From the NCBI GenBank assembly GCA_963666055.2, contig CAXWPH010000014.1, positions 448,001 to 512,000 on the forward strand: DNA of 64,000 bases. The letters are read 5' to 3'. A program made the position numbers and the translations under genes. This stretch comes from Acidobacteriota bacterium (lineage in GTDB: Bacteria; Acidobacteriota; UBA890; WLXD01). Positions within the stretch are counted from its first letter, which is position 1; each line of letters begins with the position of its first letter. This document shows positions 44,018-64,000 of the stretch, in pieces. The notes under the pieces were generated by a model. It was given only the letters and a program-made list of their open reading frames with translations, ran no database searches and was not told the DNA's origin.

Positions 44018-44821
44018 GGTACTGTCAAGTTAAGGACGCGACGCTCGGATTCGGGCAAGCTGCGGCCTGGAGCCGGGTTACCTCAGGCGGTGACGACCTC
44101 GCCCCAGGTCACAAAGGCGCGAGTCCGAAGCACCCGGTAGTTCGCAGATCGTAATCGGTGCCGGCTAAGGTTGAAGAGACTCCGGACTGCACCGTGCACG
44201 GACAGAAACCGCTGAGCTTGAGCCGCGGACTTGAACTTGCGCATCTGCCTCTCTCTTTGCCGGGTCGGCTGATGCGAGATCTCTGCTCGGTTATTCGCGT
44301 AGCGCGCCGTGACATGCTCCACCGAGGGCATCACATTCCTGTGTGCGGCCCCATAGCTTCCGAGCTTGTCGGTGATCAACCATCGAGGTTCGCTCCCCTG
44401 CCCTTTCAACAGCTTCTTGAAGAAACGTCTGGCAGCGTAGGCGTTGCGATGTCGTTGGACCAGAATGTCAATCACGTCACCATCTTGATCAACAGCGCGC
44501 CACAGATAGTGCCGCTTGCCGCGGATGCTGACGAAGACCTCGTCCAAGAACCAGGTGTCCCCGAGTCGACCTTGCCTCCGACGAAGCTTCGCTGCGTACT
44601 TGGGCCCGAACTTTGTGCACCAATACCGGATCGCCTCGTAGGAGACGATCACGCCGCGCTCGGCCAACAGGTCCTCAACATCTCGGAGGCTCAGGCCAAA
44701 GCGATGATACAGCCACACGGCGTGGCTGATGATCTCCGGAGGAAACCGGTGTCGACGGTAGCTATGCGGGATGGTGTTCATCGCCGAACTCTGCCAGCCT
44801 GCCGGTTAACTTGACAGTACC
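44018..44821 (-). mobile_element. IS6 family insertion sequence
   Basis: Perfect 16-bp terminal IRs GGTACTGTCAAGTTAA / TTAACTTGACAGTACC; no flanking direct repeat. Confidence 0.93.
44083..44781 (-). CDS. IS6 family DDE transposase
   Basis: HRFPPEII, WFLDEVF, YLWRAVD, ITDK, NNRAEISH. Confidence 0.95.
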   Translation of the reverse strand: MNTIPHSYRRHRFPPEIISHAVWLYHRFGLSLRDVEDLLAERGVIVSYEAIRYWCTKFGPKYAAKLRRRQGRLGDTWFLDEVFVSIRGKRHYLWRAVDQDGDVIDILVQRHRNAYAARRFFKKLLKGQGSEPRWLITDKLGSYGAAHRNVMPSVEHVTARYANNRAEISHQPTRQRERQMRKFKSAAQAQRFLSVHGAVRSLFNLSRHRLRSANYRVLRTRAFVTWGEVVTA

Positions 44822-44901
44822 CCTTCCAGGTACGTCCCACCAAGAAAACTCCCTTTGGATCGGGCCCGAGTGGGCTCTGGCTGTAAGCTATTGAATCTAA
44901 A

Positions 44902-44954
44902 GAGCCAGCGCGCGGATTCGAACCGCGGACCTGCTGATTACGAATCAGTTGCTC
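44902..44954 (-). pseudogene. tRNA-Thr(CGT) 3' fragment (att-site relic)
   Basis: Minus strand GAGCAACTGA-TTCGTAA-TCAGCAGGTCCGCGGTTCGAATCCGCGCGCTGGCTC; the 5' acceptor strand and D arm are absent. Confidence 0.8.
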
Positions 44955-45111: not shown

Positions 45112-45113
45112 AA

Positions 45114-45156
45114 GTAGCGGGGGCAGGATTCGAACCTACGACCTTCGGGTTATGAG
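45114..45156 (-). pseudogene. Initiator tRNA-Met(CAT) 3' fragment; probable att end of the adjacent integrated element
   Basis: Minus strand CTCATAACCCGAAGGTCGTAGGTTCGAATCCTGCCCCCGCTAC; similarity begins at the anticodon loop, about 160 bp from the integrase stop. Confidence 0.82.
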
Positions 45157-45315
45157 TCTGTTTGGGGCGTTTGCGGCTCATTCCTTCTCGTTCGAGATAA
45201 GTTGATAACCTTCGTGTTGTCAGCAGGTTACAGGTTACCTGTCTTCCATCTGATTCCCGCTGATTCTTGCCGCTTCGGCTCCGTCCGTGGCATTTCGCGG
45301 CATGACCAGGGCCAC

Positions 45316-46497
45316 TCAGGCACCTCCTTCGAGGACATCGGACCGGCGACGCTTCGTCGCGCGGATCGCCTCTTGCAAGCGTCCCATTGCGCGGTCGCTG
45401 GTCTCTTCGAAGCAGTGCCCGTAGACATCGAGCGTGAAGGAGGCACTTGCGTGGCCGAGCTGGCGGCTCACGTATTTGATGCTCTCGCCATTGTCGATCA
45501 GCAGCGACGCGAAGGTGTGCCGCAGGGAGTGCAGGCCGATCGAGTTCCGTAGGCCGGCACGCTCCCGCAGCTTCGCCCAGACGCGGGTGTTCCAGTTGTC
45601 GGGGTCGACCGGGGTGCCCTTCGGTGTGCGGAACACGTAATCGTTGGAGCCGGCGCTGTCCGTGTCGCGCAGATGCTCAAGAGCGGCGAGCACGTCTCGT
45701 GGTGCGTCGACGGTGCGGGCGCTGCCGCTTGTCTTGGGCGTAGACACCTCGCCCGCCGACAGTGCGCGGCGCACGTGGATCCGGCCACCGTTGCCGTTGT
45801 TGCCAGCTTCGATGTCACGGTGTTTGAGCGCGAGTATTTCACCGCGGCGTAGCCCACAGTACAGCGCTAGATGAACCGCGGCCGATTCCTCGGGCGTTGC
45901 GCACGCCTCGAGCAGCGCGGCCATTTCTTCGTGCTGCAGGAAGTCACGACGGGACGCGCGGCGGTCGGCCCGGTCGACCTGCATCCGCTTGATGCCGAGC
46001 ATGGGATCGTGCTTGAGGAAGCCCTGCGCTGGCTCCTGCGCCCACGTCAGGACTTGCCGGAGCAGACCAAGCAGATTGTTGAGCGTCTTCTTGCTCATCT
46101 CACCTTCACCGACCTTCGCGGCCAGTTCCTTCCGCCACGCGGCGACCGCGGTCGGTGTGAGCCTGTCGGAAGGGCAGTCGCCAAACGCGTCAATGAAGTG
46201 CTTCTCGACAATGTTGCGATAGGTCCGGGCCGTGCTCGGCTTCATGCGGTCGCCAGTGGCAAGGCGAACGTCGAGCTCGTCGGAGAGCCACGTCTTGAAG
46301 ACTTTCTTCATCGGCGCCGGCTGAACCTTGCGGAAGGTTCCGTCTCGGAGCTGGCCGCACGTCTTGTCGAGGAAAGCCTCAGCGTCCTTCTTGCGGCGAA
46401 ACGTCTTCGTGCGGTGATCGCCTTCAGGGGTTCGATATCGGCAGTCATAGCGCTTGGTGCCGTCTCGCAGGATGCGCGTGCGGATGATTCCTCTCAT
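45316..46497 (-). CDS. int: Tyrosine recombinase / phage integrase
   Basis: GLRRGEILAL, PKT, HSLRHTFAS, QLGH, TLDVYGH; all catalytic residues present. Confidence 0.95.
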   Translation of the reverse strand: MRGIIRTRILRDGTKRYDCRYRTPEGDHRTKTFRRKKDAEAFLDKTCGQLRDGTFRKVQPAPMKKVFKTWLSDELDVRLATGDRMKPSTARTYRNIVEKHFIDAFGDCPSDRLTPTAVAAWRKELAAKVGEGEMSKKTLNNLLGLLRQVLTWAQEPAQGFLKHDPMLGIKRMQVDRADRRASRRDFLQHEEMAALLEACATPEESAAVHLALYCGLRRGEILALKHRDIEAGNNGNGGRIHVRRALSAGEVSTPKTSGSARTVDAPRDVLAALEHLRDTDSAGSNDYVFRTPKGTPVDPDNWNTRVWAKLRERAGLRNSIGLHSLRHTFASLLIDNGESIKYVSRQLGHASASFTLDVYGHCFEETSDRAMGRLQEAIRATKRRRSDVLEGGA

Positions 46498-47168
46498 TTC
46501 GCGCCTCCCCTGCGCTTCTGGGTCTTGATGTTCGGATTGCCGGTGGCTCGACGCACGCGGCGCTGGTGCTCCTCCGCGTAGTCGCGCCTGCGGTCGCGCG
46601 CGAAGTTGCGGTGCCGGCAGGTGGGTTCGTGGTAGAGCTGTCGCTTGTCTCGGGGCAGAAACCACGCCACGCACACGTCGTACCTGCACCGGCGCAGTTG
46701 AGGCCACCACTGAATAATTAGGTCGGACGCCGCAGCCAAGAGAAGGGCTTCGACTGGAGCGCCTTCGTACCAGCGCCGTAGCGTCCCGTCCTCTTGACGC
46801 TCTAGCGCCCATCCAACGCGGCGGTCGACGGGCTCGCCCCTAGCCCACACAGTTTCAGATACGGACCACCTCTTGTCAGTCGCCAGCTGCTCCATGCCTC
46901 GCTTCAATGTGGCCTGGAACCGGGCCAGCACTTTGTCCCGCCAGACTTCTCCTTCGCTTGGCGCGGTGAGAACGTCGTTCGAATCTGCGGTTGGACCCAA
47001 TAGATAGCGCTCGACATCGGTGCAGAGATCGAGCATCTCTCCGCGGCGAAGTGTCGTTATCCGCCCATCACCGCCAAAGGCGATTTCCTGTTGCAGGAAG
47101 TCCAACAGCCACCTAATTCCCTTCGGGTCGGCCTCGTTCACGTCGATAAACCTCGCAGGGCTGTACAC
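46494..47168 (-). CDS. Protein with a C-terminal CGNR-like zinc finger, coupled to int
   Basis: LRRCRYDVCVAWF...YHEPTCR; its TGA overlaps the integrase ATG. Confidence 0.6.
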   Translation of the reverse strand: MYSPARFIDVNEADPKGIRWLLDFLQQEIAFGGDGRITTLRRGEMLDLCTDVERYLLGPTADSNDVLTAPSEGEVWRDKVLARFQATLKRGMEQLATDKRWSVSETVWARGEPVDRRVGWALERQEDGTLRRWYEGAPVEALLLAAASDLIIQWWPQLRRCRYDVCVAWFLPRDKRQLYHEPTCRHRNFARDRRRDYAEEHQRRVRRATGNPNIKTQKRRGGAK

Positions 47169-47317
47169 GGCAACACAACTAGCATCTTATACATATATAT
47201 CTGTTGACGTAATGTAATTTAGTTCGTCAACGCATCAATCTATTATTTGTTGCCGTGCCTCTATAATAAATAGGCGCGAGAGAGAATCTGTGAACCCAGA
47301 CCTGAGGGAACAGCGGA

Positions 47318-47551
47318 ATGACTCGCATCGAATTCGAGCGACGGCGCCGAGGGTGGACCCAGACAACACTCGGCTATCACGCCCGCATGACGCAGAGCGA
47401 TGTGTCGCGGATCGAATGTCGACGATTCCACCCCACACGGCTCTACCTTGGGCGGATTTCTCATGCGCTCGGAATACCGGCCGATGAGCTTCTTGACGAG
47501 GTGAAGGAGGACAGCACGACCGCAGCGAGGGTGGGCCATGCCGCTCCCTGA
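47318..47551 (+). CDS. XRE-family HTH (Cro-like) regulator
   Basis: RRRRGWTQTTLG...MTQSDVSRIE...ISHALGI. Confidence 0.85.
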   Translation: MTRIEFERRRRGWTQTTLGYHARMTQSDVSRIECRRFHPTRLYLGRISHALGIPADELLDEVKEDSTTAARVGHAAP

Positions 47552-47741
47552 GCCTCTTCTCGACGTCGCGGCAGTGAGCGATCTGCTGGGCGTGCCGAGG
47601 TCGTGGATCTACGCGGCTGTCGAACACGATCCGCCACGTCTTCCGTATTACCGGGTGGGGAGATACATCAAATTTCGGGCCAGCGAGATCGAAATGTGGA
47701 TACGAGCCCGAGGACGGGGGAACGACCATGGACGCGCATGA
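47538..47741 (+). CDS. Excisionase-like HTH_17 DNA-binding protein
   Basis: LLDVAAVSDLLGVPRSWIY...LPYYRVGRYIKFRASEIEMW. Confidence 0.85.
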   Translation: MPLPEPLLDVAAVSDLLGVPRSWIYAAVEHDPPRLPYYRVGRYIKFRASEIEMWIRARGRGNDHGRA

Positions 47742-47949
47742 CGCCTCGCCGCTGCAGCGCCCTCATCGAAGCAGCGGAGCGCGCTTGACGCGCCGGAGGT
47801 ACCAGGCGTGCGGCGCGGTGAACGTCACGGTGGGCCCCGAGTCCCGGCCGTTGTTCGCCCTGCTGCGGTGCCACGCGTGCGGGCGGGCCACCTGGGCCCA
47901 GCCTGCGTGGCCACCGCGGTGGTGGGACCCGTCGGGTGAGGGAACGTGA
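47728..47949 (+). CDS. Small hypothetical protein (CxxC)
   Basis: Overlaps both neighbours in the operon; contains RCHACGR. Confidence 0.45.
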   Translation: MDAHDASPLQRPHRSSGARLTRRRYQACGAVNVTVGPESRPLFALLRCHACGRATWAQPAWPPRWWDPSGEGT

Positions 47950-50156
47950 GCGTCCGGAACGTGAGCGTCGAGGTCGACGTCGCCAGTGTCGCCGAGGTTT
48001 TCGGCGAGTTCACCGACGAGCAACGGTGGGTCTGCTGGCGGGCGGAAGATCGCGGAGGCAGGCCGACCAAGGTCCCCTACCAGCCGGACGGGCGCCGGGC
48101 GTCTTCGACCGATCCCACGACGTGGTCGACCCTCGACGACGCGGTCCAGGCACATGTCCGCGAAGGGTACTCCGGTATCGGCATCGTGCTCGGGCGCGGG
48201 CTCGGAGGGGTTGATCTCGACGCGTGCCGCAACCCGGAGACGGGTGAGATCGCTGGGTGGGCGCGGGGGGGCATTCAGGAGTTTCACAGCTACACCGAGA
48301 TCAGCCCCAGTGGTACGGGGGTCAAGATCCTCGCGCTGGGTGCACCGGCCGCGTTGCCGGCCTCGGTGCTGCCGATGCCCGGCGAACCGATCGACGGCAA
48401 ACGTCCAGCGCTGGAGGCGTACGTCTCGGGCCGCTACTTCGCGCTCACGGGCAATGCCGTCAACGGCGGTGGCATCGCGGACGCCGGCGAGGCCTGGGGC
48501 CGCCTGAGCGCCAAGCTGGCAGAGCACGCCGTGCGCAACGGCGGGGGCGCCCGCCGGGAGCGCGAACCCACCGGCTCAACAGAAATCCCCGAGGAGCTGT
48601 GGCCCGCCCTGGAGGACGAGACCACCGCAGCCGGCCGGCTCTGGCGAGGTGAAAAGGACGGAGGGGACAAGTCCGGATCCGGGCTGGACGCGAGCCTCGC
48701 AGCAACGCTCGGCGCGATGGGGTTCCCCGACAAGGCCATCGAGGCCGCGCTGAGGAGCTACCGGCACGGGCAGGTTTCGGCGACCCAGGACGACCGGCAG
48801 GTGGCGCGCCTGCTGGGGATCGCCGCCCGGGCACGTGGAGAGCGGTCCGAGGATCACGGGCTCAGCCACGACGGCCTGGCGCTGGAGCTGGGTGACGCTT
48901 GGCCCGACGCCCGCTACGTGGCCGCGTGGGGGCGATGGCTGTTCTGGGATGGGGCTCGCTGGGCGCCGGACAAGACCCTGCTGCATATGACGCGATGCCG
49001 TGACTTCTTGCGACACAAGGCCGAGCGCAAGGCCAAGGGCGACAAGCTCCGGAGCGCCCACACCATCGCTCAGGTGATCGGGCTCGCGCGCAGCAACGCC
49101 AACCAGGCAGCCGACGTCGGTCAGTGGGACCGCGACCAGATGCTGCTCGGCACGCCGGGCGGCACCGTCGACCTGCGTACTGGCGAGCTGCGAGACCCGC
49201 GACCAGACGACTACATCACGAAGGTGACCGCCGTCGAGCCCGCGCCACCCGGGACGCCGACGCCCATATGGGACACGTTCCTCCGCCGCATCATGGCGGA
49301 GGACACGGACCTGATCGGGTACTTGCGGCGGTTCGCCGGTTATGCGCTCACCGGCAGCATCGAGGAGCATGCTTTCGTCTTCGGCTACGGGACCGGCGCC
49401 AACGGCAAGGGCGTGTTCACCGGGACAGTACAAGGCGTCCTCGGCGACTACGCCAACACTGTGCCGACCGAGATGCTGATGGTGACGCGAAACGAGCGCC
49501 ACCCGACTGAGCTGGCGCGGCTTGGGGGTGTGCGCCTTGCGATCGGTTCCGAGACAGAGGTCGGCAGGACCTGGGCCCAGGGGCGTATCAAGTCGCTCAC
49601 CGGCGGCGACCGGATCGCGGCGCGGTTCATGCGGCAGGACTTCTCCGAGTTTGACCCGACGTTCAAACTGTTCATCGTTGGCAACCACAAGCCGTTCCTG
49701 CGCGGCGTGGACGAGGCCATCCGACGCCGGCTTCACCTTGTGCCGTTCATTGTCAAGATCCCGGCCGCCGAGCGGGACCCGAAGCTGTCCGAGAAGCTCC
49801 GCGCCGAGTGGCCGGGGATCCTACGCTGGGCAATCGACGGCTGCCTCGAATGGCAGGAACGGGGGCTTGATCCACCGGGGGCTGTTTTGGCGGCGACCGA
49901 CGAGTATCTCGCCGGCGAGGACACTGTGGGCCGTTGGCTGGAGGAGCGCGTCACGGAGAATCCCCAGCGCTGGGCATCGTCCGCAGATCTCTACGAGAGC
50001 TGGCGACAGTGGACCGAGACCGCCGGCGAGTTCTTGATTTCTAAGAAACGCCTCAGCCAGCAGCTACAGGATCGCGGCTTCGAGCCCCTCACGCGCTCCA
50101 ACCAGCGCGGATATCGCGGGCTGATGCCAGAGCCCGGGGGAGGGCCAGAATCATGA
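47946..50156 (+). CDS. NrS-1-like primase-polymerase fused to a D5/P4-family SF3 helicase
   Basis: WVCW, TKVPY, VDLD, YTEISPSGTG, EAY..GRYFALTG; D5_N WLFWDGARW; Walker A GTGANGKG; KSLTGGD; GNHKP. Confidence 0.88.
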   Translation: MSVRNVSVEVDVASVAEVFGEFTDEQRWVCWRAEDRGGRPTKVPYQPDGRRASSTDPTTWSTLDDAVQAHVREGYSGIGIVLGRGLGGVDLDACRNPETGEIAGWARGGIQEFHSYTEISPSGTGVKILALGAPAALPASVLPMPGEPIDGKRPALEAYVSGRYFALTGNAVNGGGIADAGEAWGRLSAKLAEHAVRNGGGARREREPTGSTEIPEELWPALEDETTAAGRLWRGEKDGGDKSGSGLDASLAATLGAMGFPDKAIEAALRSYRHGQVSATQDDRQVARLLGIAARARGERSEDHGLSHDGLALELGDAWPDARYVAAWGRWLFWDGARWAPDKTLLHMTRCRDFLRHKAERKAKGDKLRSAHTIAQVIGLARSNANQAADVGQWDRDQMLLGTPGGTVDLRTGELRDPRPDDYITKVTAVEPAPPGTPTPIWDTFLRRIMAEDTDLIGYLRRFAGYALTGSIEEHAFVFGYGTGANGKGVFTGTVQGVLGDYANTVPTEMLMVTRNERHPTELARLGGVRLAIGSETEVGRTWAQGRIKSLTGGDRIAARFMRQDFSEFDPTFKLFIVGNHKPFLRGVDEAIRRRLHLVPFIVKIPAAERDPKLSEKLRAEWPGILRWAIDGCLEWQERGLDPPGAVLAATDEYLAGEDTVGRWLEERVTENPQRWASSADLYESWRQWTETAGEFLISKKRLSQQLQDRGFEPLTRSNQRGYRGLMPEPGGGPES

Positions 50157-50157
50157 G

Positions 50158-50300
50158 CGTACGCGTCGTACGGGTGCGCCGGTTTCGGACGCATGCCCGA
50201 GAATACCTATCGTACGGGTGCCCCCTTTTTGGACGTATAGCTATCCGGCATAACGCGCGCGCGCGTTACGTCCTATATAGGGGGACGTGTACGACGCGTA
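50158..50300. repeat. ori-like repeat region downstream of primase 1
   Basis: TCGTACGGGTGC twice, IR TACGCGTCGTAC/GTACGACGCGTA, palindromes TAACGCGCGCGCGCGTTA and CCTATATAGG. Confidence 0.6.
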
Positions 50301-50448
50301 TCGGCCGGGTCGGTGCTCATACGGGCGTTACGGCGGCCGCTCCCGCCCCTCCTTCCTCGCATTCTTCCGCGTACGGCTCGACCCGCGCGCCGGGCTCGTC
50401 GAGCATCTGCGAGCCGCGGCATTCCGTGGCATGGAAGCTTGAAAGCCG

Positions 50449-51018
50449 TTGAATGATAGGGACTTACAAGAGCAAGTTAGGGTGACAGCCCGAAGGTCAA
50501 GCGAGGCATCCGGGGGGCAAGCTCGGCCGTTTCGAGAACTCGACACCGATGGCACCGAGTCGGCCCGTGCTGTCAGCACCGCGCTCGAGGCCGTACAGGA
50601 GCGTCCAGACCGGGACCCGAAGACGGGGCAATTCGTAAAAGGCAATCAGGTAGCCGGGCGCTCGAGATGGCCGGCACGCTCGGAGGCGTTTTGGTCCGAG
50701 GTCTCCGCCGCGAAACGTGAACTCGCCGAGCGGGTGCTCACCGACCTAGGCGCGGACGATGGCGCCGCGGCGGAGACGCTCGTCGGCGTCGCTGACGGGT
50801 ACGCCGAAGCTCGGGTCCTACGACACGCGATGTTTCTTCGTTTGATCGAGCTGGGCGGACCGGTGACCACGAAAGGCAAAGCCCGCGCTCTGTTCTCGTC
50901 GTACCTACAAGCGCTCGATCGCGAGACGCGGCTGGCGCAAACGCTCGGCCTCGAGCGCAGGGCGAAGGCTGTCTCGCTGGCCGATGCGATCAATGATCGC
51001 CAAAAGGCGGGAACGTAG
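50449..51018 (+). CDS. Hypothetical protein, possible terminase small subunit
   Basis: RDPKTGQFVKGN motif, helical, directly upstream of terL; start uncertain. Confidence 0.5.
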   Translation: MNDRDLQEQVRVTARRSSEASGGQARPFRELDTDGTESARAVSTALEAVQERPDRDPKTGQFVKGNQVAGRSRWPARSEAFWSEVSAAKRELAERVLTDLGADDGAAAETLVGVADGYAEARVLRHAMFLRLIELGGPVTTKGKARALFSSYLQALDRETRLAQTLGLERRAKAVSLADAINDRQKAGT

Positions 51019-51022
51019 GCGG

Positions 51023-52624
51023 ATGAGCGGTGCACAAGAGTACACGCCGCGTGAGTTCCGGTCCTTGTGGCCGGAGTTCGACGCCGACTCATGGGCACCG
51101 TGGGCCTCGGTCGAGGACGCCATGTTTGGCGTCGAGCCGGAGGACACCGAACTGGTGCGGCGCATCACCGGCCGCGAGCGCGTGCCATCCGACCCCGTCA
51201 AAGAGTTCTGGGCAATCGTCGGCCGCGGTGGGGGCAAGTCGCGCTTCTGTGCTCGGCTCGCTGTCTACTTCGCCTGCGGACGCGCCTACAGGCGCGTCCC
51301 TGGCGAGCGGATCTTCATCGGCATCTTCGCGCCTGATCGAAAGCAGGCGGGCGTCATGTTCCGCTACGTGCTCGGCTTACTGCGCGCCGTGCCGGCTCTC
51401 GAGCGCATGGTTCGCCGCTCCCTGCGCGAGAGCGTCGATCTTGACAATGGCGTCACCATCGAAGTCATCACCGCCTCCAAGGCGGCGCCGCGCGGCCGCT
51501 CTTACGCATTGGCAATCGTCGAAGAGGCCGCGTTCTTGCCCGCTGACGACGCTACCGACCCAGACAAGGAACTGCTGCGTGCGCTACGGCCCGCTCTCGC
51601 TCGCGTGCCGGGGTCGGTGCTTGCGGTTGTATCGAGCCCCTACGCACGCCGGGGCGAGCTGTGGCGGACCTGGAAGGAGCGCTTCGGCAAGGACGACTCC
51701 GATTCCGTGCTCGTTGTGCAGGCCGATACGCTGACGCTGAATCCGGCTTTCGACGAGCGGGAGATCGAGCGCGCATACGCCGAAGACCCCGTTGCGGCTT
51801 CTGCGGAGTACGGTGCCCAGTTTCGAACCAACGTCTCAGGCTTCATCTCGCGTGAGGCTGTCGAGGGCTGCACGGTGCCCGGCCGGCGTGAGCTGCCACC
51901 GGTGCAGGGGGTCAGCTACACCGGTTTCGTTGACTTTGCGGGTGGCTCCGGGCAGGACTCCGCTACGTTGGCGATCACGCACCTCGAGTTCCGCGAAGAG
52001 CGCAGCATGGGCGTCCTCGACTTGGTGCGAGAGGTCCGGCCGCCGTTCTCTCCGGAGCAGGTGTGTCGCGACTTCGCCGGCGATCTGAAGCGCTACCGGG
52101 TCACCCGCGCGACAGCCGATCGCTACGCTGCCGACTTCGCGACAGAGGCGATGAGACGGCAGGGGATCGACCTCAAGGCGGCAGACAAGGCGAAGACCGA
52201 TCTGTACCGTGAGTTCTTGCCCGCACTCAACAGTGGCGGCATCGAGCTGCTAGATCTGCCGCGACTAGCAGCCCAGCTCGGTGGCCTCGAGAGGCGTGTG
52301 GCCCGTGGTGGCCGCGACAGCATAGATCATGCTCCCGGCGGCCACGATGACGTCGCCAACGCTGTCGCCGGTGCGCTGGTTGCGATAGCGGAAGGGAAGC
52401 GCCGGCGCTGGGGCATCGTCCTGAGCGCAAGAGAGACCGCCGCGACGGGTTGCGCCGATACGAGCTCGCTCGCCGAGCGCGCACGACAACTCGGCGTCAG
52501 TGGCAGTTGGGATGAAATGTTCCGCGCCGTGGCACGTGCCCACGGGGGCGAGCAACAGCAGGCCGGAAGCTCGGCAGAAGAAGAATTCATCCCCGGCGGA
52601 CCGCAGCGCATCGGGATGCTCTGA
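51023..52624 (+). CDS. terL: Terminase large subunit
   Basis: Walker A GRGGGKS, Walker B AIVEEAAF, motif III SSP, nuclease VDFAGGSGQDS and HDDVANA. Confidence 0.82.
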   Translation: MSGAQEYTPREFRSLWPEFDADSWAPWASVEDAMFGVEPEDTELVRRITGRERVPSDPVKEFWAIVGRGGGKSRFCARLAVYFACGRAYRRVPGERIFIGIFAPDRKQAGVMFRYVLGLLRAVPALERMVRRSLRESVDLDNGVTIEVITASKAAPRGRSYALAIVEEAAFLPADDATDPDKELLRALRPALARVPGSVLAVVSSPYARRGELWRTWKERFGKDDSDSVLVVQADTLTLNPAFDEREIERAYAEDPVAASAEYGAQFRTNVSGFISREAVEGCTVPGRRELPPVQGVSYTGFVDFAGGSGQDSATLAITHLEFREERSMGVLDLVREVRPPFSPEQVCRDFAGDLKRYRVTRATADRYAADFATEAMRRQGIDLKAADKAKTDLYREFLPALNSGGIELLDLPRLAAQLGGLERRVARGGRDSIDHAPGGHDDVANAVAGALVAIAEGKRRRWGIVLSARETAATGCADTSSLAERARQLGVSGSWDEMFRAVARAHGGEQQQAGSSAEEEFIPGGPQRIGML

Positions 52625-52625
52625 A

Positions 52626-52994
52626 ATGACGAAGGCGCATGCAACGCTGTCGGCCAGCATAGGCTCACCGGCGAAGAAGTCGCCGCACGTGTTGAAAGCG
52701 GCGTTGAAGGGCATTCTGTCGCGACCCACGCGCTGGCACCTGCGCCGGGTCGGCAAGTTCCCGGAGCCGATCAAGGCGACTGCCGAGCGCTCCCTGCACT
52801 GGGCCACAGACATCAACGCCTGGATGGATGACCCGCGGGAGTGGGGCGCGGAAACACGGGCGGGGGACTTCGTGAGTCGCCCTCGTCGCGGCGGATGGTT
52901 GGTAACTTGCCCGTGCTGCGGGGCGAACGAGGGGGCGGAGTTCGCGGACATTTGGGCAGGCGCAGAACTGAGCTCTTCTGCGAGGACGCAATGA
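52626..52994 (+). CDS. Hypothetical protein (CPCC motif)
   Basis: Lies between terL and primase 2; ATGA overlap with the next gene. Confidence 0.55.
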   Translation: MTKAHATLSASIGSPAKKSPHVLKAALKGILSRPTRWHLRRVGKFPEPIKATAERSLHWATDINAWMDDPREWGAETRAGDFVSRPRRGGWLVTCPCCGANEGAEFADIWAGAELSSSARTQ

Positions 52995-55366
52995 GCTTCA
53001 CGTGCGTCGACGTCGCTCGGGCCGCGGGATTGGAGAAGGGCCGTCGCGTCGGCGCGGAGAGGTTGTTCCGGTGTTGCCAGCATGACGACACTCGGCCCTC
53101 TCTGTCGATCAATGAGCGCAAGAACCGGTGGATTTGCGGGCCGTGTGAGGCTGGTGGCGGGGCCTGGAAACTGGCGGCGTTCCTTGGCGGCTTCGATCCG
53201 GACGACAAGCAGGCCGTACTCTCGTGGCTCCGCGACCACGATCTGCTTGATGGCGAGCGGGTCTCGTCGAAGTTCGTTGCCACTCACGACTACACGGACC
53301 ACGCCGGTGAGCTACTGTTCCAGGTCGTGCGCCTGCGGCCCAAGTCCTTCCGACAACGGCGTCCGGACGGCAACGGCGGGTGGGTGTGGAACGTCGACGG
53401 TGTGCGCCGCGTGTTGTACCGGCTGCCCGAGCTTGGCACGGCCACGGTCGTGCACATCAACGAGGGAGAAAAGGACGCCGACGCACTTCACGGCATCGGT
53501 CTCTCGGCCACATGTAACCCCGGGGGTGCGGGGAAGTGGCGGGACGAGTACACGGAGTCCTTCACTGCCGAGCACCAGGTCGTTGTCTTGCCGGACAACG
53601 ACGACGCCGGTCGCCGGCACGCCGAGACGGTGGCCGCATCACTGCACGGTCAGGTCGCGTCGGTGAAGGTGCTCCAGCTGCCGGACCTAGCTCCCAAGGG
53701 GGATGTCACGGACTTCATCAACGCGTGCAGGGACGCGGAGGAAGCTGCCGAGCGGCTTGCCACCATAGCGAATGGGGCGGATCAATGGGAGCCGCAGGCT
53801 GCCGACGAACCGACTGTGGAGGACCGCTGCACAACCATCGAGATCCGGCCCGACCTGACTGGCGTAACCGATGAGGCCATCGACGCGATAGCCGCGCAGC
53901 CGAGCCTCGGAGTCTACGTCCGCGGCCGCCAACTCGTGCGCGTCGCGCGGGACGGGTCTCCGCCGGAGTGCTGGCTGGAGCGATGGCCCGGGTCTCCGGT
54001 GATCGTTCCCATGGCGAGCGCACAGGTACTCGACGTCCTCGACCGAGCCGCCGCGTGGGTGAAGTTCGACGGCCGCCGCAAGGAGTATGTTGCCGCGATA
54101 CCGCCATCGTGGGTCGCGCAGCAGGTGGGTGCAAGGCTGGAGTGGCCGCTGCCGTACCTGGAGGCGGTTACCGAGACGCCGACCATCCGGTCTGACGGGT
54201 CGATCCTGGAGACGCCGGGGTGGGACCAGGCGTCCCGTCTCCTATACGAGCCGATCCCGGGAGCAGCGACGTGGCCGCCGGTGCCGGAGCAACCGACTGG
54301 GGAGGACGTACGCCGTGGCATCGCGATGCTGCGGGACCCATTGGAAGACTTCCCTTTCAAAGCGGAATCGGACGGTGCGGCCGCCATCGCGGTCATTCTG
54401 ACTCTGTTGGCGCGGCACCTCATTCACGGGCCGGTTCCGTTGATGGCCATTCGGGCGCCGACGCCGGCGACCGGCAAAACGCTGTTGGCCGACGTTATCG
54501 GGATCATGGGCACAGGGCGTGTCCCGCCCGTTATGACGATGACCTTCGAGTCGGAGGAGCTGCGGAAGCGGGTTACCTCCCTTGCGGTCGAGGGTGCTGC
54601 GCTAATCCTCCTCGACAACGTGTCGGGCACCCTTGGGTCCGACACCCTAGCCGCCGCGCTGACGGCGACCGACTGGGAAGACCGCATCCTCGGGACGAAC
54701 ACGGTTGTCCGCGTGCCGCTGCGCGTGGTGTGGATGGTGACCGGCAACAATCTCGGCTTTCGTCGCACGCTCGGACGGCGTGTGATCCCGATCGACCTGG
54801 ACGCGGGGGTGGAGCAGCCGGAGGACCGGGTCGGATTCCGCCACGCGGACCTGAGGGGGCACGTCCGCGAGCGCCGGCCGCACCTGGTGACCGCGGCCCT
54901 GACGATCCTGCGAGCGTTTCACCTAGCAGGTCGGCCGGCGCACGGGGGACCACGCATGGGCAGCTTCGAGGCCTGGGATGACCTGATCCGATCCGCGGTC
55001 ATCTGGGCCAGCTTGGCCGACCCTGCGTCCGCGGATCCGGAGCACGGACGGGGGCGAGTACGGTCGCAAGCGGATGACGATACGGAGACGCTGCGGCTGC
55101 TGCTGCGCGCGTTGGCCGACGCCTTTCCCCGCGGCGACTTTACGGCCGCGGACGTGGTGACCCGCTCGCGCAGTGACGAGGATCTAGCCGCTGCGCTGGA
55201 CGTAGCGGCTGCGCCGAGACGTGGTGGGAAGCCGACCGGCCGATCGTTGGGGTACGCGTTCCGGAATGCAGTTGACCGACCGGTCGGAGGCCTCGTGCTG
55301 CGCCGGTGGATGCAAGGGCGATCTGGGGTTGTCTGGCTGGTCGAGAGCCCGGAGGAGACGCGGTGA
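52991..55366 (+). CDS. Zn-finger/TOPRIM primase fused to a P-loop (SF3-like) ATPase
   Basis: CCQHDDTRPSL...CGPC, EGEKDAD, NPGGAGKW, PDNDDAG, PATGKT, LLDNV, TGNN. Confidence 0.85.
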   Translation: MSFTCVDVARAAGLEKGRRVGAERLFRCCQHDDTRPSLSINERKNRWICGPCEAGGGAWKLAAFLGGFDPDDKQAVLSWLRDHDLLDGERVSSKFVATHDYTDHAGELLFQVVRLRPKSFRQRRPDGNGGWVWNVDGVRRVLYRLPELGTATVVHINEGEKDADALHGIGLSATCNPGGAGKWRDEYTESFTAEHQVVVLPDNDDAGRRHAETVAASLHGQVASVKVLQLPDLAPKGDVTDFINACRDAEEAAERLATIANGADQWEPQAADEPTVEDRCTTIEIRPDLTGVTDEAIDAIAAQPSLGVYVRGRQLVRVARDGSPPECWLERWPGSPVIVPMASAQVLDVLDRAAAWVKFDGRRKEYVAAIPPSWVAQQVGARLEWPLPYLEAVTETPTIRSDGSILETPGWDQASRLLYEPIPGAATWPPVPEQPTGEDVRRGIAMLRDPLEDFPFKAESDGAAAIAVILTLLARHLIHGPVPLMAIRAPTPATGKTLLADVIGIMGTGRVPPVMTMTFESEELRKRVTSLAVEGAALILLDNVSGTLGSDTLAAALTATDWEDRILGTNTVVRVPLRVVWMVTGNNLGFRRTLGRRVIPIDLDAGVEQPEDRVGFRHADLRGHVRERRPHLVTAALTILRAFHLAGRPAHGGPRMGSFEAWDDLIRSAVIWASLADPASADPEHGRGRVRSQADDDTETLRLLLRALADAFPRGDFTAADVVTRSRSDEDLAAALDVAAAPRRGGKPTGRSLGYAFRNAVDRPVGGLVLRRWMQGRSGVVWLVESPEETR

Positions 55367-55487
55367 TGACGTTGATCGCGGTGATGGATCCTCCGTACGC
55401 GCGGGGAAGTGGCGGCTGCAGGGCGGTTTCCGGTGTGCGAATCGGGGTCCTGGGGCGGTATCCATCGCCACCATCGCCGCCATCACC
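55362..55487. repeat. Opposed 9-bp-period iterons downstream of primase 2 (ori-like)
   Basis: GGTGATGAC GTTGATCGC GGTGATGG ... CCATCGCCA CCATCGCCG CCATCACC. Confidence 0.62.
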
Positions 55488-55513
55488 ACCGGCAGCGGCC
55501 TGCTGACGGGACA

Positions 55514-55602
55514 GGCCACGACGACGTCGCCAATGCGGTCGCCGGGGCGCTGGCAGCGGTGGCGAGGGAACGTCGACCACGCTGGGGCGTTGCCTGAGCG
55601 CA
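55514..55602 (+). pseudogene. Diverged second copy of the terL nuclease end
   Basis: GHDDVANAVAGALAAVARERRPRWG versus GHDDVANAVAGALVAIAEGKRRRWG at about 52340-52428. Confidence 0.8.
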
Positions 55603-55723
55603 GAGGAGGAAGAAAGTCGTTCACGTCGCCAGCCGCGCTCGTCTTGTTGACATTGCCGGCTTGGAACCGGACACGGAGGTCCAGCCCCCTCCGGGGCCGC
55701 CGGGTTGGCGTGAACAGGTTCAA

Positions 55724-55781
55724 TTAGGTTCAGGACCTAGTGGGCTTCGGCCCGTGGGGGTTCAAGTCCATCCTTGGGAAC
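55724..55781 (+). pseudogene. Degenerate tRNA-Leu(CAG) 3' fragment (att relic)
   Basis: TTAGG-TTCAGGA-CCTAG anticodon arm, long variable arm GGGCTTCGGCCC, GGGGGTTCAAGTCC T arm; no 5' half. Confidence 0.7.
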
Positions 55782-56048
55782 TTCGGTTTAACCTCTTATA
55801 AAATAAGAAGATACCAAGGGTAATGGGGCATTTCGTTTTCGGTTCCCTCTCGCCACTTTAGCGGCGAAAGTTAACAAACAGTTAACAAAACGGTCGCGAA
55901 TGCGTCGGCAGCGGCAGTAATGGGTGCCGGTTGCCGACGAGGAGACATCGTACGCTCGATGCAGTGGGCCGACACAGCATAGCAAGTTCCTTATCAAGCT
56001 TGCCGACTCTCTCGGCATCATCAAAGAACCACCAGGCTAGATCATGGA

Positions 56049-56359: not shown

Positions 56360-59300
56360 CTACGCAGCTTCGTAGGTGATCGAGAAGATCGTGTCCGTCA
56401 GCCACCGGCGGAACGACTCGTTGTCGCTGAACTGCTTGAACAGCTCCGTGTCGTCTTTCAGCAACGCCGTCATCACCCGCCGGAGCGCCTTGTCGTGCTC
56501 GATCCGCGCGTTCTGCTTGTCGGAGTTCTGCTTGGCGTTCTGGTAAGCACTGTCGGCCGCCACGCGGTTCGGGATGTCCTCCGTGATAAGTCGGTGGACG
56601 CGGTCGCCATCGGTCCAGGGGATGTTCCCGAACTGGTCGTTGAAGGTCTTGAGGATGTTCGAGAGGCGGTCGAGCTCGGGTTCCGGCCTGTGACCAGCGC
56701 CGGTACCCGGGACCGGCTCGATCTCGGCCTCCTCGTCCGCCAGTTGGACCTGTCTCGCTGCCTTCTTCTCGACCCGGTAGCTGTCCATGTCGATGAGCTC
56801 AAGAATGCCTTGGGACAGATCCTCTTGCACCGGTGCGGGGAGCTTCGGCACCAGGAAGTTCAGGAAGATAGAGAGCTTCTCCCACTCGGCGTTCGTGTAA
56901 GGCAGGATCGAGGCCAGAAAGCCGTACACGCGCCCGAACGCCTTGGCCGTGCCCTTGAAGTCCACCTGCTCGTCCTCGTCCAACTGCTCCTTGTAGACCG
57001 CTACGCAGGCGTCGAGGATGGGGTCGAGCCGGTCGCGGTCGGCCCCTTCCAGGTAGAGCGTCACGAGCTGGTCGATCTGCGCGTTGGCATACACCTGATA
57101 ACCGTCGAGCGCCGCCTTGAGGTCGTGCAGCTTGTTGGGGTCGGTCTCCTCGCTGAGGATCGTCGTGCGGTAGTAATCAGCGAACGCCTCTTGGATGGCG
57201 TCGGCATCGTTCATGAAGTCGAGGACGAACACGTCGTGTTTCTTCGGGTGCGCCCTGTTGAGACGCGACAGCGTCTGCACCGCCTTGATCCCGGACAAGA
57301 TCTTGTCCACGTACATCGTGTGCAACAGCGGCTCGTCGTACCCGGTCTGGAACTTGTCGGCACAAATGAGGAACCGATAAGGGTCGTGCTGGATCTCGTC
57401 GGCGATCCGCCCGGAGGGGAAGCCGTTCAGGGATGCCTCACTGACCTGCGCCCCGCCATACTCGTGCTCGCCTGAGAACGCGACGATGGCCTGATGCGGA
57501 CTCTTGCGCTCCACGAGGTACTGCCGGATCGCGTGGTAGTACTGGATTGCGCGCTGGATGCCGCTTGTCACCACCATCGCGCGTGCGTTGCCACCGATCT
57601 TGTTGAGCGCCAGCACCTGTTCGTGAAAGTGGTCCACCATGATCTCGGCCTTGAGCTGGATGGCATGCTCATGGCTCTCGACATAGCGGCGCAGCTTCTT
57701 CCGGGCGCGCTTGTTGTCGAATTCTGGATCACCCTCGATCTTCTTGATGAGCTTGTAGTAGCTCTCGACCGGCGTGTAGTGCTGCAGCACGTCCAGGATG
57801 AAGCCCTCCTGGATCGCCTGCTTCATGGTGTAGCTGTGGAAGGAGCGGTGCTTGCTCTGCCCGCCCGCGCCGTACGCCTCGCCGAAGATCTCCAGCGTCT
57901 TGTTCTTGGGCGTGGCGGTGAAGGCAAAGTAGCTCGCGTTCGGCAGGAGCTTCCGCGCCGCCATGATGCGGTTGATCCTGTCCTCGGTGGTCTCCTCCTC
58001 CTGCTCGGCGCCCGCCTCCGAAAGCGCCATATGGACCGCCGCTGCGGTCTTGCCGCCCTGGCTCGAATGCGCCTCGTCGATAAGGATGGCGAAGCGCCGG
58101 CCCCGCTGCTCGTTGCCGATCTCATCGAGGATGAACGGGAACTTCTGCACCGTCGAGATGATGATCTTCTTGCCGCTCTCGATAAACGCGCGGAGATTTG
58201 CCGAGCGTTTGGCATGCCCGACGGTGGCCCCGACTTGGGCGAACTGCTTGATCGTGTCGCGGATCTGCTGGTCGAGGATGCGTCGGTCCGTGACCACGAT
58301 GATGGAGTCGAACACCTCCGCGTCGTCTTTACGTAGCCCGATCAACTGGTGCGCAAGCCAGGCGATGGAGTTGGACTTGCCGCTACCGGCCGAATGCTGG
58401 ATGAGATACTGCTTCCCTGCGCCGTGCTGGCAAGTATCGGCCAAGAGTCGACGCACCACGTCGAGCTGGTGGTAGCGTGGCCAGATCTGCACCCTCCTCT
58501 TCTTGCCTGTCTTGTCATCCTTGGTCTGGACGATCTGGGCGTAGTTTTCCAGGATGTTGGTCAGGCTGTCGCGGGTGAGCAGGCGCTTCCAGAGGTAGTC
58601 GGTCTTAATCCCGTTCGGGTTCGGCGGGTTGCCAGCGCCGTCGTTCCAACCCCGGTCGAACGGCAGGAACCAGGACTTCTTGCCGGCGAGATGTGTACAG
58701 AAGCGCACCTCGTTGTCGTCCACAGCGAAGTGGGCCACGCAGCGGCCGAGCTCGAACAGCTTCTCGCGCGGGTCGCGGTCACGCTTGTACTGCTGCACGG
58801 CATCCTGGACTGTCTGCTTGGTGAGGCTATTCTTCAGCTCGAACGTGGCGACCGGCAGGCCGTTGATGAACAGGCCGAGGTCGAGCGCGAGCTGGGTCTC
58901 ATCGCGGCTGTAGCGGAGCTGGCGCGTGACCGAGAAGCGGTTCTGTGCGTAGCGTTCAGCGGCGAGAGGGTTATCGGTAGACGGGGTGCCATGGAACAGG
59001 TCCAGGTCATGCGCCCCGTGCTTTGAGGCCGTGGCGCAGCACGTCGATGGTGCCGCGCTTGCTGATCTCGCCTTGGAGGCGCGCCAGGAACTTCCGGCGC
59101 GCTGGCCCGTCGTCTTCCAGGTGCAGCCCCTCGAACGCATCCGGTTGCGTTGCCACGAGGAACGCCCGCAGCTGCGCCGGATCGACCGTGTACTCCCGGT
59201 CGTACTCGTTGGGGTGGCCGCAGATCCATCCGGCCCCACCCGAAGGGGCGGCGTCTTCACCTTCCAAACCTGCCTGCGCCAACGCGGCATCGCAGGCACT

Positions 59301-59360
59301 GCCGGTCAAGGCGGTGCAGATCAACCGTTCGAGTCCGCGTTCGCTAGTGTCGGTTGTCAC
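56360..59360 (-). CDS. hsdR: Type I restriction subunit R (frameshift near 59023)
   Basis: TDTSERGLE start, FELKN, QHSAGSGKS, DEAH, TATP, KFQTGYDEP, QTLSRLNR; one extra A joins the two ORFs. Confidence 0.88.
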
Positions 59361-60848
59361 ACTGCGGCCTTCTCGGGGGTGGCGAGACCTTCGGTGGGCT
59401 CTTGCTCGCCGTTGATGAGGGCTTCAGCCTCGTCGAGGGACTCGGGCTCCTCGGCCTCATCCGGTAGCCGGGATGCCGCCTCCCGAACGTCGAGCTTGCC
59501 GGTGACAACGTCGGCGATGAGGCGGGTGCGATATTCCCGGAGAAGGCTAGTCTCGTGCTCTGCGCGGGCAGCTGCCCGGTCGATGTCGGCAGTTAGTTCG
59601 GAAACCGCACGGAGAAGTTCCTCCTGCTTCCCCAACCGACGGAAACAAAATCGGAAAGGCACGCAACGTGCTGCTGTTAGTGGAGGCGAGGTTCGTGGTC
59701 TGTTTCGCGGTGAGTTGGAAGTAACTGCGTCCGAGCTGCGAAGCCATGAGGCCCACCAAGAACTCAGGCAGCACGTCCTTCTGCTGACAACGAACCGCGA
59801 ACACGTGGTTCTGGTGTAAGCATTCCGCTACTTCGCCACCCCAAACGCAGCCACGCCCGAGCTTGTCGATGTCGCCCCCTTCGGTCATCAAGACATCCCC
59901 CGCCTGAAGGGTGGAACGCTGCGCTGCAGCAGGTGGAACATCCAGTTGCTTGACGTGCTGAAGATCAAGACGACCACTCTGGACGTTCGCTACTCTGAGA
60001 TACGGGTAGGATTCAGTATCACTGCCTCGATAGTTCTTCCCCAGCGTCAGCCCCGTCTGAACAGCGGCTACATCCTTAAGCCTGGTGACTTCCCAATGCT
60101 CCGGCACCTCCCCCAGCCACTCGACGCCGGAGGGCTTGTAGGCCGGGTAAGGCTGGCCGGTTCGGACGTCGATCTGGCCTGTGACGGCCTGGTGGATGAG
60201 GGCCTGCTTCTGCTCTTGTAGCAGCGTGATCAGCTTCTGCTTGGCGCGGATATAGTGCTGGATGCGCCGGTCGGCGTAGTCGAGATAGCGGACGATGGCG
60301 GCTTGCTCGGGGAGGGGTGGAAAAGCAACAGGCTCGCCTAGGTAAGAAGACGAGTCGAGGTTCTGTATCCCCGTCGTTTGCTTGATCGAGCGAACGTTGA
60401 GTCGGATGGCGTAAAGGTGCGAGTGCAGGTACGTCAGGTAGCTTGAGTCACAATGAGCGGAAACCAGCATCAGGGCGACGAAGTTCGAGCACACCGCCTC
60501 AACATCGTGGTCATATAAAATCACTACGCCTACCGGCTGCAGGTTGCCTCCACCAGACTTCTCCAAGAGCAGGTCGCCTTGCTTCAACAAGCGACGGTTT
60601 CGCTCGTTCGGCGCTATTGCTCGAAGCGTGGGGTTCTCCAGTTTTACGCGCAAACGGACCCGATCAAAGTCTGCGACACGTACGCAAGGCAGGTCCTCGC
60701 GGCCGTTTGGATCATTTCCCCAGATCCCGTTGATACACCCGTGAACGGAGGTCCCCAACCGCCGCACATCCCAGTGCTCTGGAACCGCCCCCAGCCACTG
60801 CACGCCGGAGTCCTTCATTGAGGGATAGGGCTTGAGGTCAGCGATCAC
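59357..60848 (-). CDS. hsdS: Type I specificity subunit (frameshift near 59631)
   Basis: KDSGVQWLG, PPLPEQAAI, two TRDs, LIADVVTGKLDVR after a shift in a G4 run. Confidence 0.88.
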
Positions 60849-62950: not shown

Positions 62951-64000
62951 CGGGCATTTCCCCCAATGATTTCCTCCAACAGGCCGTCCGTTTCCTGCTC
63001 CAGCGCCAGGATGTCGGCGCGGATCTCCTTGAGCGAACGCATCGGCGTCGGCTTGTAGAAGTAACGGGTAAAGCTGATCTCGTAGCCAATCTTCACGCTG
63101 CCCGGGACGTACCAGGCGTCGGCCGCGTAAGAGAGTACCTCGCGGCGCAGGAACGCCTCGACGCCGCCCTGCTCCAGTAGCGGCACCTGCTCGGTGTCCC
63201 GCAGATCGGTGTCCGGCTCGTACTCGACCACGCACTGCTTCTTGCTGATGGTCACCTCGAACAGGCCGACCAGTGGGTTGGGTTCAACGCCTCGCTTGTG
63301 GATCTTCTTGATGACGGGCGGTGCACTCTCGTCCCGCTCGGCGGTCTCCTTGAGGGCCTTGATCTCCTTTGCCGCGTAGGCTCGGTCGGGGTCGGTCCCC
63401 GTGAGCCGGAGGGGTCGCTCGACCTTCACCTTCCGGTACCCGAAGGCGGCGTTCGGGAAAATCTTGGACTGCTCGGTCTCCTCGAAGGCCAGGAACGCGT
63501 CGCAGATGCAGGTGATGTCCTCCTCGGACAGCTCGCAGTTCTTCTTGCCCAGGTTCTTGCGCAGCGGCTTGAACCACTGCGTGGCGTCGATGAGCTGGAC
63601 CTTGCCGCGTCGATGGGCAGGTTTTCGGTTCGTCAGCACCCAGATGTAGGTGGCGATGCCGGTGTTGTAGAACATGTTCAGCGGCAACGCGACGATCGCC
63701 TCCAGCCAGTCCTTCTCGATGATCCAGCGGCGGATGTTGCTCTCTCCCTGCCCGGCGTTGCCCGTGAACAGGGAGCTGCCGTTGTGGACCTCGGCAATAC
63801 GGCTCCCCAGCGGCGTGCCGTGCTTCATCTTCGAGAGCATGTTCGCCAGAAACAGCATCTGACCGTCGCTGGAGCGGGTGATGAGCGAGTACTCGGCATC
63901 ACCGTCGTGTTGGATCAGAAAGCGCGGGTCCTTGATGCCCGCCTTGCCGCCCAGGCGCTCCAGGTCACTCTTGTAGCTCTTGCCGTAGGGCGGGTTGGAA
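62947..64000 (-). CDS. hsdM: Type I methyltransferase subunit (5' part outside the window)
   Basis: SNPPYGK at the window edge, SDGQMLFL, FYNTGIATY, GYEISFTRYFY. Confidence 0.93.
   Translation of the reverse strand, partial: SNPPYGKSYKSDLERLGGKAGIKDPRFLIQHDGDAEYSLITRSSDGQMLFLANMLSKMKHGTPLGSRIAEVHNGSSLFTGNAGQGESNIRRWIIEKDWLEAIVALPLNMFYNTGIATYIWVLTNRKPAHRRGKVQLIDATQWFKPLRKNLGKKNCELSEEDITCICDAFLAFEETEQSKIFPNAAFGYRKVKVERPLRLTGTDPDRAYAAKEIKALKETAERDESAPPVIKKIHKRGVEPNPLVGLFEVTISKKQCVVEYEPDTDLRDTEQVPLLEQGGVEAFLRREVLSYAADAWYVPGSVKIGYEISFTRYFYKPTPMRSLKEIRADILALEQETDGLLEEIIGGNAR

Follow-up and report, generated by a model that had tools for sequence, protein, structure and literature searches.

The 64,000-nt stretch considered here (the window) corresponds to positions 448,001 to 512,000 of contig CAXWPH010000014.1 in the Acidobacteriota assembly GCA_963666055.2 (G000:C14:448001-512000) and carries a 10.7-kb island at window positions 45,113-55,782. 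Its genes follow the order integrase, Zn-finger-like gene, xre, xis, primase-helicase, iterons, a gene resembling that of the small terminase (TerS) and an intact gene for the large terminase (TerL). No portal, capsid or tail family was recognised among the ten element proteins scanned against Pfam and PHROG, and a six-frame search of window positions 43,901-64,000 with four profiles built from family loci returned zero portal or capsid matches. An earlier note, made from the letters alone, had described int and a Zn-finger-like gene diverging from xre, xis, primase/helicase and terL, with no portal, capsid or tail genes; all of these genes are indeed in place with open reading frames, and both kinds of search confirmed the absence. 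The island most probably belongs to an apparently undescribed satellite family, similar to PICIs (phage-inducible chromosomal islands), that brings a whole packaging motor and would borrow its heads. We give this reading roughly two chances in three.

TerL (51023..52624, plus strand; 533 residues) is intact and mosaic, matches phrog_2 at 3.5e-26 and, as a profile, reaches T4 gp17 at 8.6e-5. It bears Walker A at residue 67, Walker B at 165, the SSP motif at 204 and nuclease residues D304, D366 and D442; a C-terminal extension of about 80 residues matches solely unnamed viral clusters (0.90-0.91). The small-terminase-like protein upstream (50449..51018, plus strand), conserved from about 50524, has no Pfam or PHROG family match. 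Its 62 homologs form a family located just upstream of terL in 29 of the 31 complete elements described below. The predicted structure is helical (pLDDT 86); against BFVD, small terminases ranked first, third and fourth, none significantly (E 0.33 or worse), and a comparison with PDB representatives gave generic helical hairpins only (Z up to 8.7). In Atlas, the protein scored 0.92 against clusters in which 56% and 11% of the members carry Terminase_4. A predicted TerS-TerL complex scored 0.42 (best control 0.00), with at least 93% contact agreement between runs and a partner pLDDT of at least 64. In calibration, 116 of 157 solved pairs and 2 of 215 mismatched ones attained this mark; because 18 of these solved pairs and both mismatches score at or below 0.60, the prediction is weak support. 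The product of 50449-51018 is thus a probable, not a proven, small terminase.

The left part of the island provides genes for integration, regulation and replication. An intact tyrosine integrase of 393 residues (45316..46497, minus strand; PF00589 5.8e-21, phrog_1 8e-69) shows a dN/dS of 0.09 against its copy in G005, a genome of another genus. Beside it lies an attachment (att) site recognised by tRNA similarity, the 3' half of a tRNA-fMet(CAT) starting at the anticodon loop (45113..45156, minus strand), which is 82.9% identical over 111 nt (42/44 in the core) to the tRNA-Met at G000:C14:334305. An identical left boundary adjoins a 98%-identical integrase in G005:C2. Also on the minus strand is a putative regulator of 215-224 residues with a Cys/His-rich tail (47141/47168-46494), the Zn-finger gene of the earlier note; it has no Pfam or PHROG match, its tail resembles a CGNR finger by eye only, and its slot is variable, G005:C2 and a contig of run X9 having other genes there. 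On the plus strand follow an Xre/Cro-like helix-turn-helix (HTH) regulator (47318..47551; HTH_31 8e-7, phrog_3), an excisionase/AlpA-like HTH protein (47538..47741; HTH_17 5e-9, phrog_66), an uncertain 73-residue open reading frame (ORF; 47728..47949) that overlaps both neighbours, lacks a family match and was missed by the gene caller, and primase-helicase 1 (47946..50156; N-terminal primase, D5/SF3 helicase; D5_N 2e-25, DUF5906, phrog_1829 1e-122, phrog_13901). The adjoining tract of CGTACG-containing direct and inverted repeats (50155..50448), with four CGTACG sites plus such repeats in 50155-50300, is a putative origin (origin 1), as judged from its repeats and position. Of the names first given to these genes, int, xre, xis, primase and terL are therefore backed by Pfam or PHROG, whereas the Zn finger goes back to inspection by eye, terS is probable and the origin is read from repeats.

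About one third of the interval (52,626-55,597) consists of a second AlpA-primase-origin module and a duplicated terL tail. The earlier note had the gene set right but missed this module, the duplicated tail and the loss of the partner att. The AlpA-like regulator of the module (52626..52994, plus strand) begins one base past the terL stop; it is 51% identical over 53 residues to an HTH_17 protein of a sister element on contig C6 of the same genome and is identical in G005:C4. Primase-helicase 2 (52991..55366, plus strand; 791 residues, intact) combines a Zn finger, a Toprim domain and a helicase (Toprim_2, phrog_29234 6e-68) and is 99% identical in G005. Putative origin 2 (55367..55513) was recognised from its GGTGATG/CATCACC-type repeats and k-mer counts. 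It is followed by a second terL 3' end (55514..55597, plus strand), comprising the last 27 codons from the GHDD nuclease motif and 79% identical to 52340-52429. This tail copy agrees with the native terL end in the C6 sister, 55514-55782 being 95% identical to G000:C6:328780-329048. Runs X1, X4 and X5, which come from two studies (one of them possibly the source of the present DNA), each have an individual contig that spans the cassette between the two tails, with 7-19 differences. In L010, L020 and L036, a primase of this second type stands immediately before terS-terL, so the right-hand module is most simply seen as what remains of a second family member after loss of int and terS-terL. No intact ancestor was found in 26 genomes of the class (the module occurs only in G000 and G005) or in IMG/VR. 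Insertion of a 3.17-kb cassette targeting the terL GHDD motif was also considered and not adopted, since a second homologous terL with a deletion would leave an identical repeat.

The right end of the island is a degenerate tRNA-Leu(CAG) 3' fragment (55725..55782, plus strand; 79% to tRNA-Leu(CAG)), which follows the terL tail also in L002 and L231, whose integrases differ. It was rejected as the partner att, since it does not match the Met core and trails the terL tail with three different integrases; it is a relic att carried along with that tail. No partner for the tRNA-fMet half was found on the right, nor any intact tRNA-Met rightward on contig C14.

Matches to the island were found in 7 of 41 related genomes, G000 included. 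Contig C6 of G000 holds two further portal-less int-regulator-helicase-terS-terL elements, with TerL 85% and 70% identical. G005, whose best match over 1 kb to the window's 18-kb left flank is 70%, also carries two. Its C2 element has att, int, xis, primase 1 and origin 1 in common with the window at 92-97%; its C4 element has a different integrase and helicase and is 95% identical to the window over 4.2 kb, from the terL 3' half through AlpA, primase 2, origin 2 and the terL tail to the Leu fragment. Overall, both halves of the window copy are present in this other genus at 89-97%, and modules have thus been exchanged recently between genera. Such exchange extends into terL: compared with the G005 copies, identity of the window gene is 53-69% as far as about nt 900 and 98-100% from nt 1000 onwards, versus 79-96% to its C6 sister over the first 900 nt. 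The crossover lies near nt 900-1000, at the ATPase/nuclease boundary, and TerS goes with the ATPase half. The window copy, a mosaic, no longer has its partner att. In L233/L248 (G005:C2:1200-12900), the sister element is followed by genes for an SNF2-helicase, a 694-aa and a 978-aa protein, which may resemble a DUF499/DUF1156 defence system.

To place the island among loci with related TerL, of which homologs numbered at least 6,585, 80 of 241 GTDB loci and 80 of 430 metagenome loci, the best in each case, were taken together with 42 IMG/VR loci, all with 10 kb on each side, a choice that favours close matches to a satellite-rich alignment. Genes were called by our own script and clustered. 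PHROG scans covered representatives of 137 of the 239 multi-locus clusters listed, 139 of the 140 plus-strand singletons that lie within 8.5 kb downstream and reach 180 aa, and, inside att-bounded elements, the 104 other genes with 130 aa or more. Among the 80 GTDB loci, 21 had less than 5 kb downstream and 3 lacked a TerL call, which left 56 with at least 5 kb downstream of terL. A portal was present in 2/56 of these, a capsid gene in 1/56 and both in 0/56, and an integrase lay within 10 kb in 45/56, with a median integrase-terL gap of 4.4 kb. Among usable metagenome loci, a portal was seen in 1/9, a duplicate of L122. Recurrence of the layout among TerL homologs, which the earlier note had proposed as a check, is therefore observed, complete att-bounded portal-less elements that keep the catalytic residues being present in four phyla.

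Some loci show other combinations. Intermediate forms comprise a portal with no capsid gene seen (L012, L102, L107, L108), a protease, capsid and tape measure with no portal (L101, L103), and a capsid alone (L055). In L028:12284-20174 and L132:11625-14119, terL is followed by proteins of 438, 631 and 2190 aa, whose composition presumably recalls podovirus ejection proteins; the 438-aa protein has no PHROG or Pfam match. A comparable element may be L242 (KX853514, Virus Rctr16k), a 16.7-kb partial record with an integrase, a replication gene and a distant terminase (25%), in which neither portal nor capsid is annotated.

Complete elements could be delimited where a tRNA-type direct repeat spans terL, which is the case in 31 of the 87 loci that reach 12 kb (23 repeats of 43-59 bp and 8 of 16-29 bp, most of them 100% identical). 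These elements sit at about 12 kinds of tRNA, measure 9.7-18.1 kb (median 15.0) and come from 22 Pseudomonadota, 6 Acidobacteriota, 1 Nitrospirota, 1 Eisenbacteria and 1 unknown host. An integrase is present in 31/31, the TerS family in 29/31, a recognised replication gene in 27/31, a portal in 0/31 and a capsid gene in 1/31. Virion-type accessories comprise tape measure (6), baseplate hub (4), tail-fibre-like (4), protease-like (3), neck (3) and scaffold (1) genes, and 15/31 elements have no recognised structural gene; tape measure, baseplate hub, protease-like and scaffold genes are of the kinds that satellites use for virion remodelling. Four Sphingomonadaceae elements of 11.7-12.4 kb keep a common gene order at three tRNA types, and L047 and L049 carry a 99% identical 6.1-kb terL block at tRNA-Lys and tRNA-Thr in one genome.

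Usually right after terL, several members encode unannotated helical proteins of 200-260 aa (L038:5547-6281 and clusters c18, c20, c73 and c92), with a long hairpin and P4 Sid-like in size. These are possible capsid-size adaptors. For c20 (about 240 aa, good model), P4 Sid ranked only 21st (E 0.76), a match that is not significant, and among seven such post-terL clusters mutual relationship was undetectable, save for c73/c92 at 37% probability.

The motor gene is under purifying selection. The dN/dS of terL is 0.14 and 0.17 against the two C6 sisters and 0.04-0.23 in six of seven other portal-less pairs, several at dS near 1 (the seventh pair is identical); overall it is 0.04-0.25 for pairs not near dS saturation, and the comparisons with the G005 ATPase half give 0.32-0.36 at near-saturated dS. 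Catalytic residues R157, E168, D304, D366 and D442 are kept in 30/30 aligned att-bounded TerLs, and K72 in 28/30. In an IQ-TREE LG+G4 tree of 49 chosen TerLs (a FastTree with 100 rows was also made), the window TerL falls in a 100/100 clade of 16, together with its C6 sisters, eight loci from Acidobacteriota genomes, one of them portal-bearing, and five IMG/VR contigs, of which one has no detected portal and four are portal-bearing and nested inside. These neighbours point to an Acidobacteriota as the likely host. TerL moved between phages and elements, or the elements arose several times; the tree is compatible with either.

Beyond the island, the flanks also hold host genes; the left flank contains a tRNA-Thr fragment and an IS6 element, the transposase of which (window 44018-44821) has 83-85% copies on several G000 contigs. 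Orphan tRNA 3' fragments (Met, Thr, Leu) are scattered through G000, including window positions 44899-44954, 45113-45156 and 55725-55782, and an identical tandem Met+Thr block occurs on contigs C10, C14 and C15. At G000:C5:65608-65685, beside a tRNA-Met fragment, ARAGORN calls a tRNA-Pyl(CTA); it is 87% identical to a G005 tRNA-Arg and probably represents a degenerate tRNA-Arg copy rather than pyrrolysine use. On the right flank, the stretch from window 56360-64000 on to G000:C14:516645 comprises a type I restriction-modification (RM) locus with an inserted GmrSD/DUF5655 gene, followed by a MerR-like gene and a split serine-recombinase-like gene adjoining tRNA-Glu. This stretch is probably a separate tRNA-Glu island abutting the element, and the same RM genes occur in G002 at 95-98% in a different location.

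Among known satellites, PICIs (SaPIs and Gram-negative PICIs) are similar in their integrase, AlpA/Xre regulators, primase-replicase and size of about 10-15 kb and also have a small terminase, for which the island has a probable counterpart (PMC10085698). As for the features that define them, the island has an integrase and a primase-replicase with adjacent origin (two primase-helicases, with putative origins), and its regulators are of the AlpA/MerR/Stl type by HTH_31 and HTH_17/phrog_66, Phage_AlpA itself reaching only E 0.05. Like PICIs, it lacks holin and major tail genes and would depend on helper virions (PMC10085698). Flanking att repeats, absent from the window copy, occur in the 31 of 87 family loci noted above. 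Unlike a PICI, which uses the helper TerL, the island has an intact TerL of its own and no capsid-morphogenesis gene, often present in PICIs, was found among window ORFs; tape-measure or baseplate genes, barred by the PICI model, are also present in many relatives (PMC10085698). In the available text on SatelliteFinder, TerL is listed as a cf-PICI-specific component and not among the forbidden components of the PICI model, so that a partial PICI call on the island is possible (PMC10085698).

Capsid-forming PICIs (cf-PICIs) such as EcCIEDL933 have the same int-alpA-rep order followed by their own terS and terL, the island terS being putative, but their major capsid, protease, portal, head-tail connector and HNH genes are all absent from the window (10.1101/2022.09.08.507074). 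According to the available part of that report, cf-PICI TerLs form clean clades apart from phages, whereas those of the island family are interleaved with phage TerLs (10.1101/2022.09.08.507074). The window TerL matches phrog_2/Terminase_6N. The cf-PICI TerL, in contrast, is HK97-type. P4-like satellites carry sid, delta, psu and alpha and have no terminase; the element proteins have no PHROG or Pfam match to these four genes and do include a terminase. Nor does the island have the portal, capsid, tail and lysis modules of an intact prophage. With its own TerL and with capsid, portal and P4 genes absent, the island fits neither PICIs, cf-PICIs nor P4, as the earlier note had argued.

Two further groups offer partial parallels. 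The EPIPs of Mycolicibacterium are satellites of about 11 kb with terS, a tape measure and helper virion parts, recalling the family members with a tape measure; they differ in their serine integrase, head-tail adaptor and stopper, with no large terminase listed, and a search of the supplement gave no matches (PMC12822802). The window copy has a tyrosine integrase and no tape measure, adaptor or stopper. VEIMEs, marine satellites of small size with an integrase, AlpA and a primase/helicase, are packaged as concatemers, as is proposed for the island; the available text describes small terminases and names the helper as the presumed source of the large one (PMC9618062). No satellite with TerL and without portal and capsid was found described in the literature searched, which largely excluded subscription papers and in which supplements might list some.

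How such an element might move can be sketched by analogy with PICIs. Helper infection would relieve its repression, Int and Xis would excise it, and the primase-helicase would replicate it from the repeat tract. According to the part of the source available on lambda, TerL is anchored by TerS where packaging starts, at the packaging site, and a C-terminal domain of TerL mediates docking on the portal (PMC9026076). Here, TerS would mark the element DNA, and TerL would cut it, dock on the helper portal and compete with the helper motor. An intact TerL is kept without a portal, and the portal would therefore be supplied in trans; that heads are borrowed from a helper rests on the same analogy. 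The window copy has no size-redirecting gene, and full-size heads would therefore be filled with multimers or flanking DNA. Its precise excision is doubtful, but in-place replication and packaging may still be possible. The predicted helper is a tailed phage with related TerL, such as those on IMG/VR contigs L090, L111 and L122 (51-52% identity, phrog_146 portal). In these and other tailed phages (L117, also L109-L125 and L126), TerL is 40-52% identical, four of them falling in the window clade; a phrog_146 portal follows terL, capsid genes are present where the contig reaches, and no int-AlpA module lies near terL.

A number of observations weigh against the satellite reading. No helper, particle or circle was found: profiles phrog_146, 145 and 12 detected no portal in the 95.7%-complete G000 genome (146 matched no control genome), the closest isolated-phage TerL is less than 30% identical, and Logan contigs of 6 runs gave no excised circle or att junction, a result of no weight either way because contigs drop rare forms. 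The window copy lacks a matching attL/attR repeat pair, TerS is identified by indirect means, and in G002, G011 and G012 splits or stops affect several relatives. The att-bounded set is biased to small elements; with only 10-kb flanks a full prophage is impossible there, and the 56-locus count is thus the fairer test. By that count, close homologs do not routinely carry portal and capsid genes, the outcome that the earlier note would have taken as refutation, but 17/29 usable IMG/VR loci do have a portal. Ten phage-like TerLs occupy three places in the tree that starred branches force apart, amounting to three changes; the TerL family is not satellite-only and serves real phages too. Finally, a single portal-to-lysis deletion in a temperate phage would give the same gene order.

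In G000 itself, the capsid profile phrog_264 found nothing (it matched no control genome either), and the phrog_10 and phrog_2 matches are fragments without neighbouring virion genes, namely a capsid fragment and an orphan broken terL. The latter is part of an isolated terS-terL pair from a different family, interrupted by an internal stop (G000:C8:21800-23950, L245); the capsid fragment lies with a small HTH/TerS-like ORF beside insertion sequence (IS) elements (G000 C10:28300-30000, L246).

TerS and TerL might instead be kept mainly as an anti-phage device that jams portals, or as a gene-transfer device that packages neighbouring host DNA, with the island moving by other means. We consider this unlikely. 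Restriction systems do lie directly downstream in the window (type I RM and GmrSD) and also occur in L231/L232, L237, L240, L057 and L083, and the motor of the window copy is intact despite a broken att pair and with no capsid-size gene. Yet self-packaging accounts better than a decoy role for the conserved ATPase and nuclease sites and for the near-constant linkage of the motor with an integrase, a primase and a putative origin inside att repeats, and no conjugation genes were seen among the elements scanned. Interference and self-packaging are in any case not exclusive.

A slightly poorer prospect is prophage decay, in which all that lay beyond terL was lost time and again, with leftover head and tail genes as debris and no transfer in particles. 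The gene order is that of a temperate phage minus one large deletion; phage TerLs are interleaved with portal-less ones, the scattered head and tail genes differ between members, broken copies are common in the window's host family, and the window copy has no partner att. At the family level, decay is nevertheless largely contradicted. The portal, the terL neighbour in phages, is absent from 54/56 GTDB loci, yet distant tail genes are kept; portal-less sisters at dS near 1 retain dN/dS of 0.12-0.18 and an unchanged gene order; most att repeats are 100% identical, with an integrase-terL gap of just 4.4 kb at the median; and near-identical modules occur at different tRNAs and in different genera. 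It is very improbable that heads come from a complementary defective element with capsid and portal but no terminase, rather than from a complete phage: the intermediate forms named above (L012, L102, L107 and L108; L101 and L103) give the idea some footing, but the search of G000 found no such partner, only the capsid fragment beside IS elements, and tails and lysis would still require a phage.

What is new here is the census, the nested phage TerLs and the cross-genus swap of TerL domains. Described satellites redirect a helper terminase (PICI, P4, PLE) or build a whole head (cf-PICI), and the packaging motor without a head found in this family fills the gap between them. Such elements have probably been filed as broken prophages, because terL is treated as a prophage hallmark. 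More tentatively, they may form a large undescribed satellite class in Alphaproteobacteria, Acidobacteriota and other phyla, with a complete terminase for foreign portals, in which helpers would be retargeted by swapping TerL halves: the ATPase half would travel with TerS for recognition of element DNA, the nuclease/C-terminal half would serve as the portal address, and TerL would be traded with true phages nested in the satellite tree. Natural TerL chimeras, together with culturable carriers, make the specificity rules of TerS, TerL and portal testable. If the satellite reading is true, TerL is able to function with the portal of a different genome, and these elements, often located beside restriction systems, may spread them.

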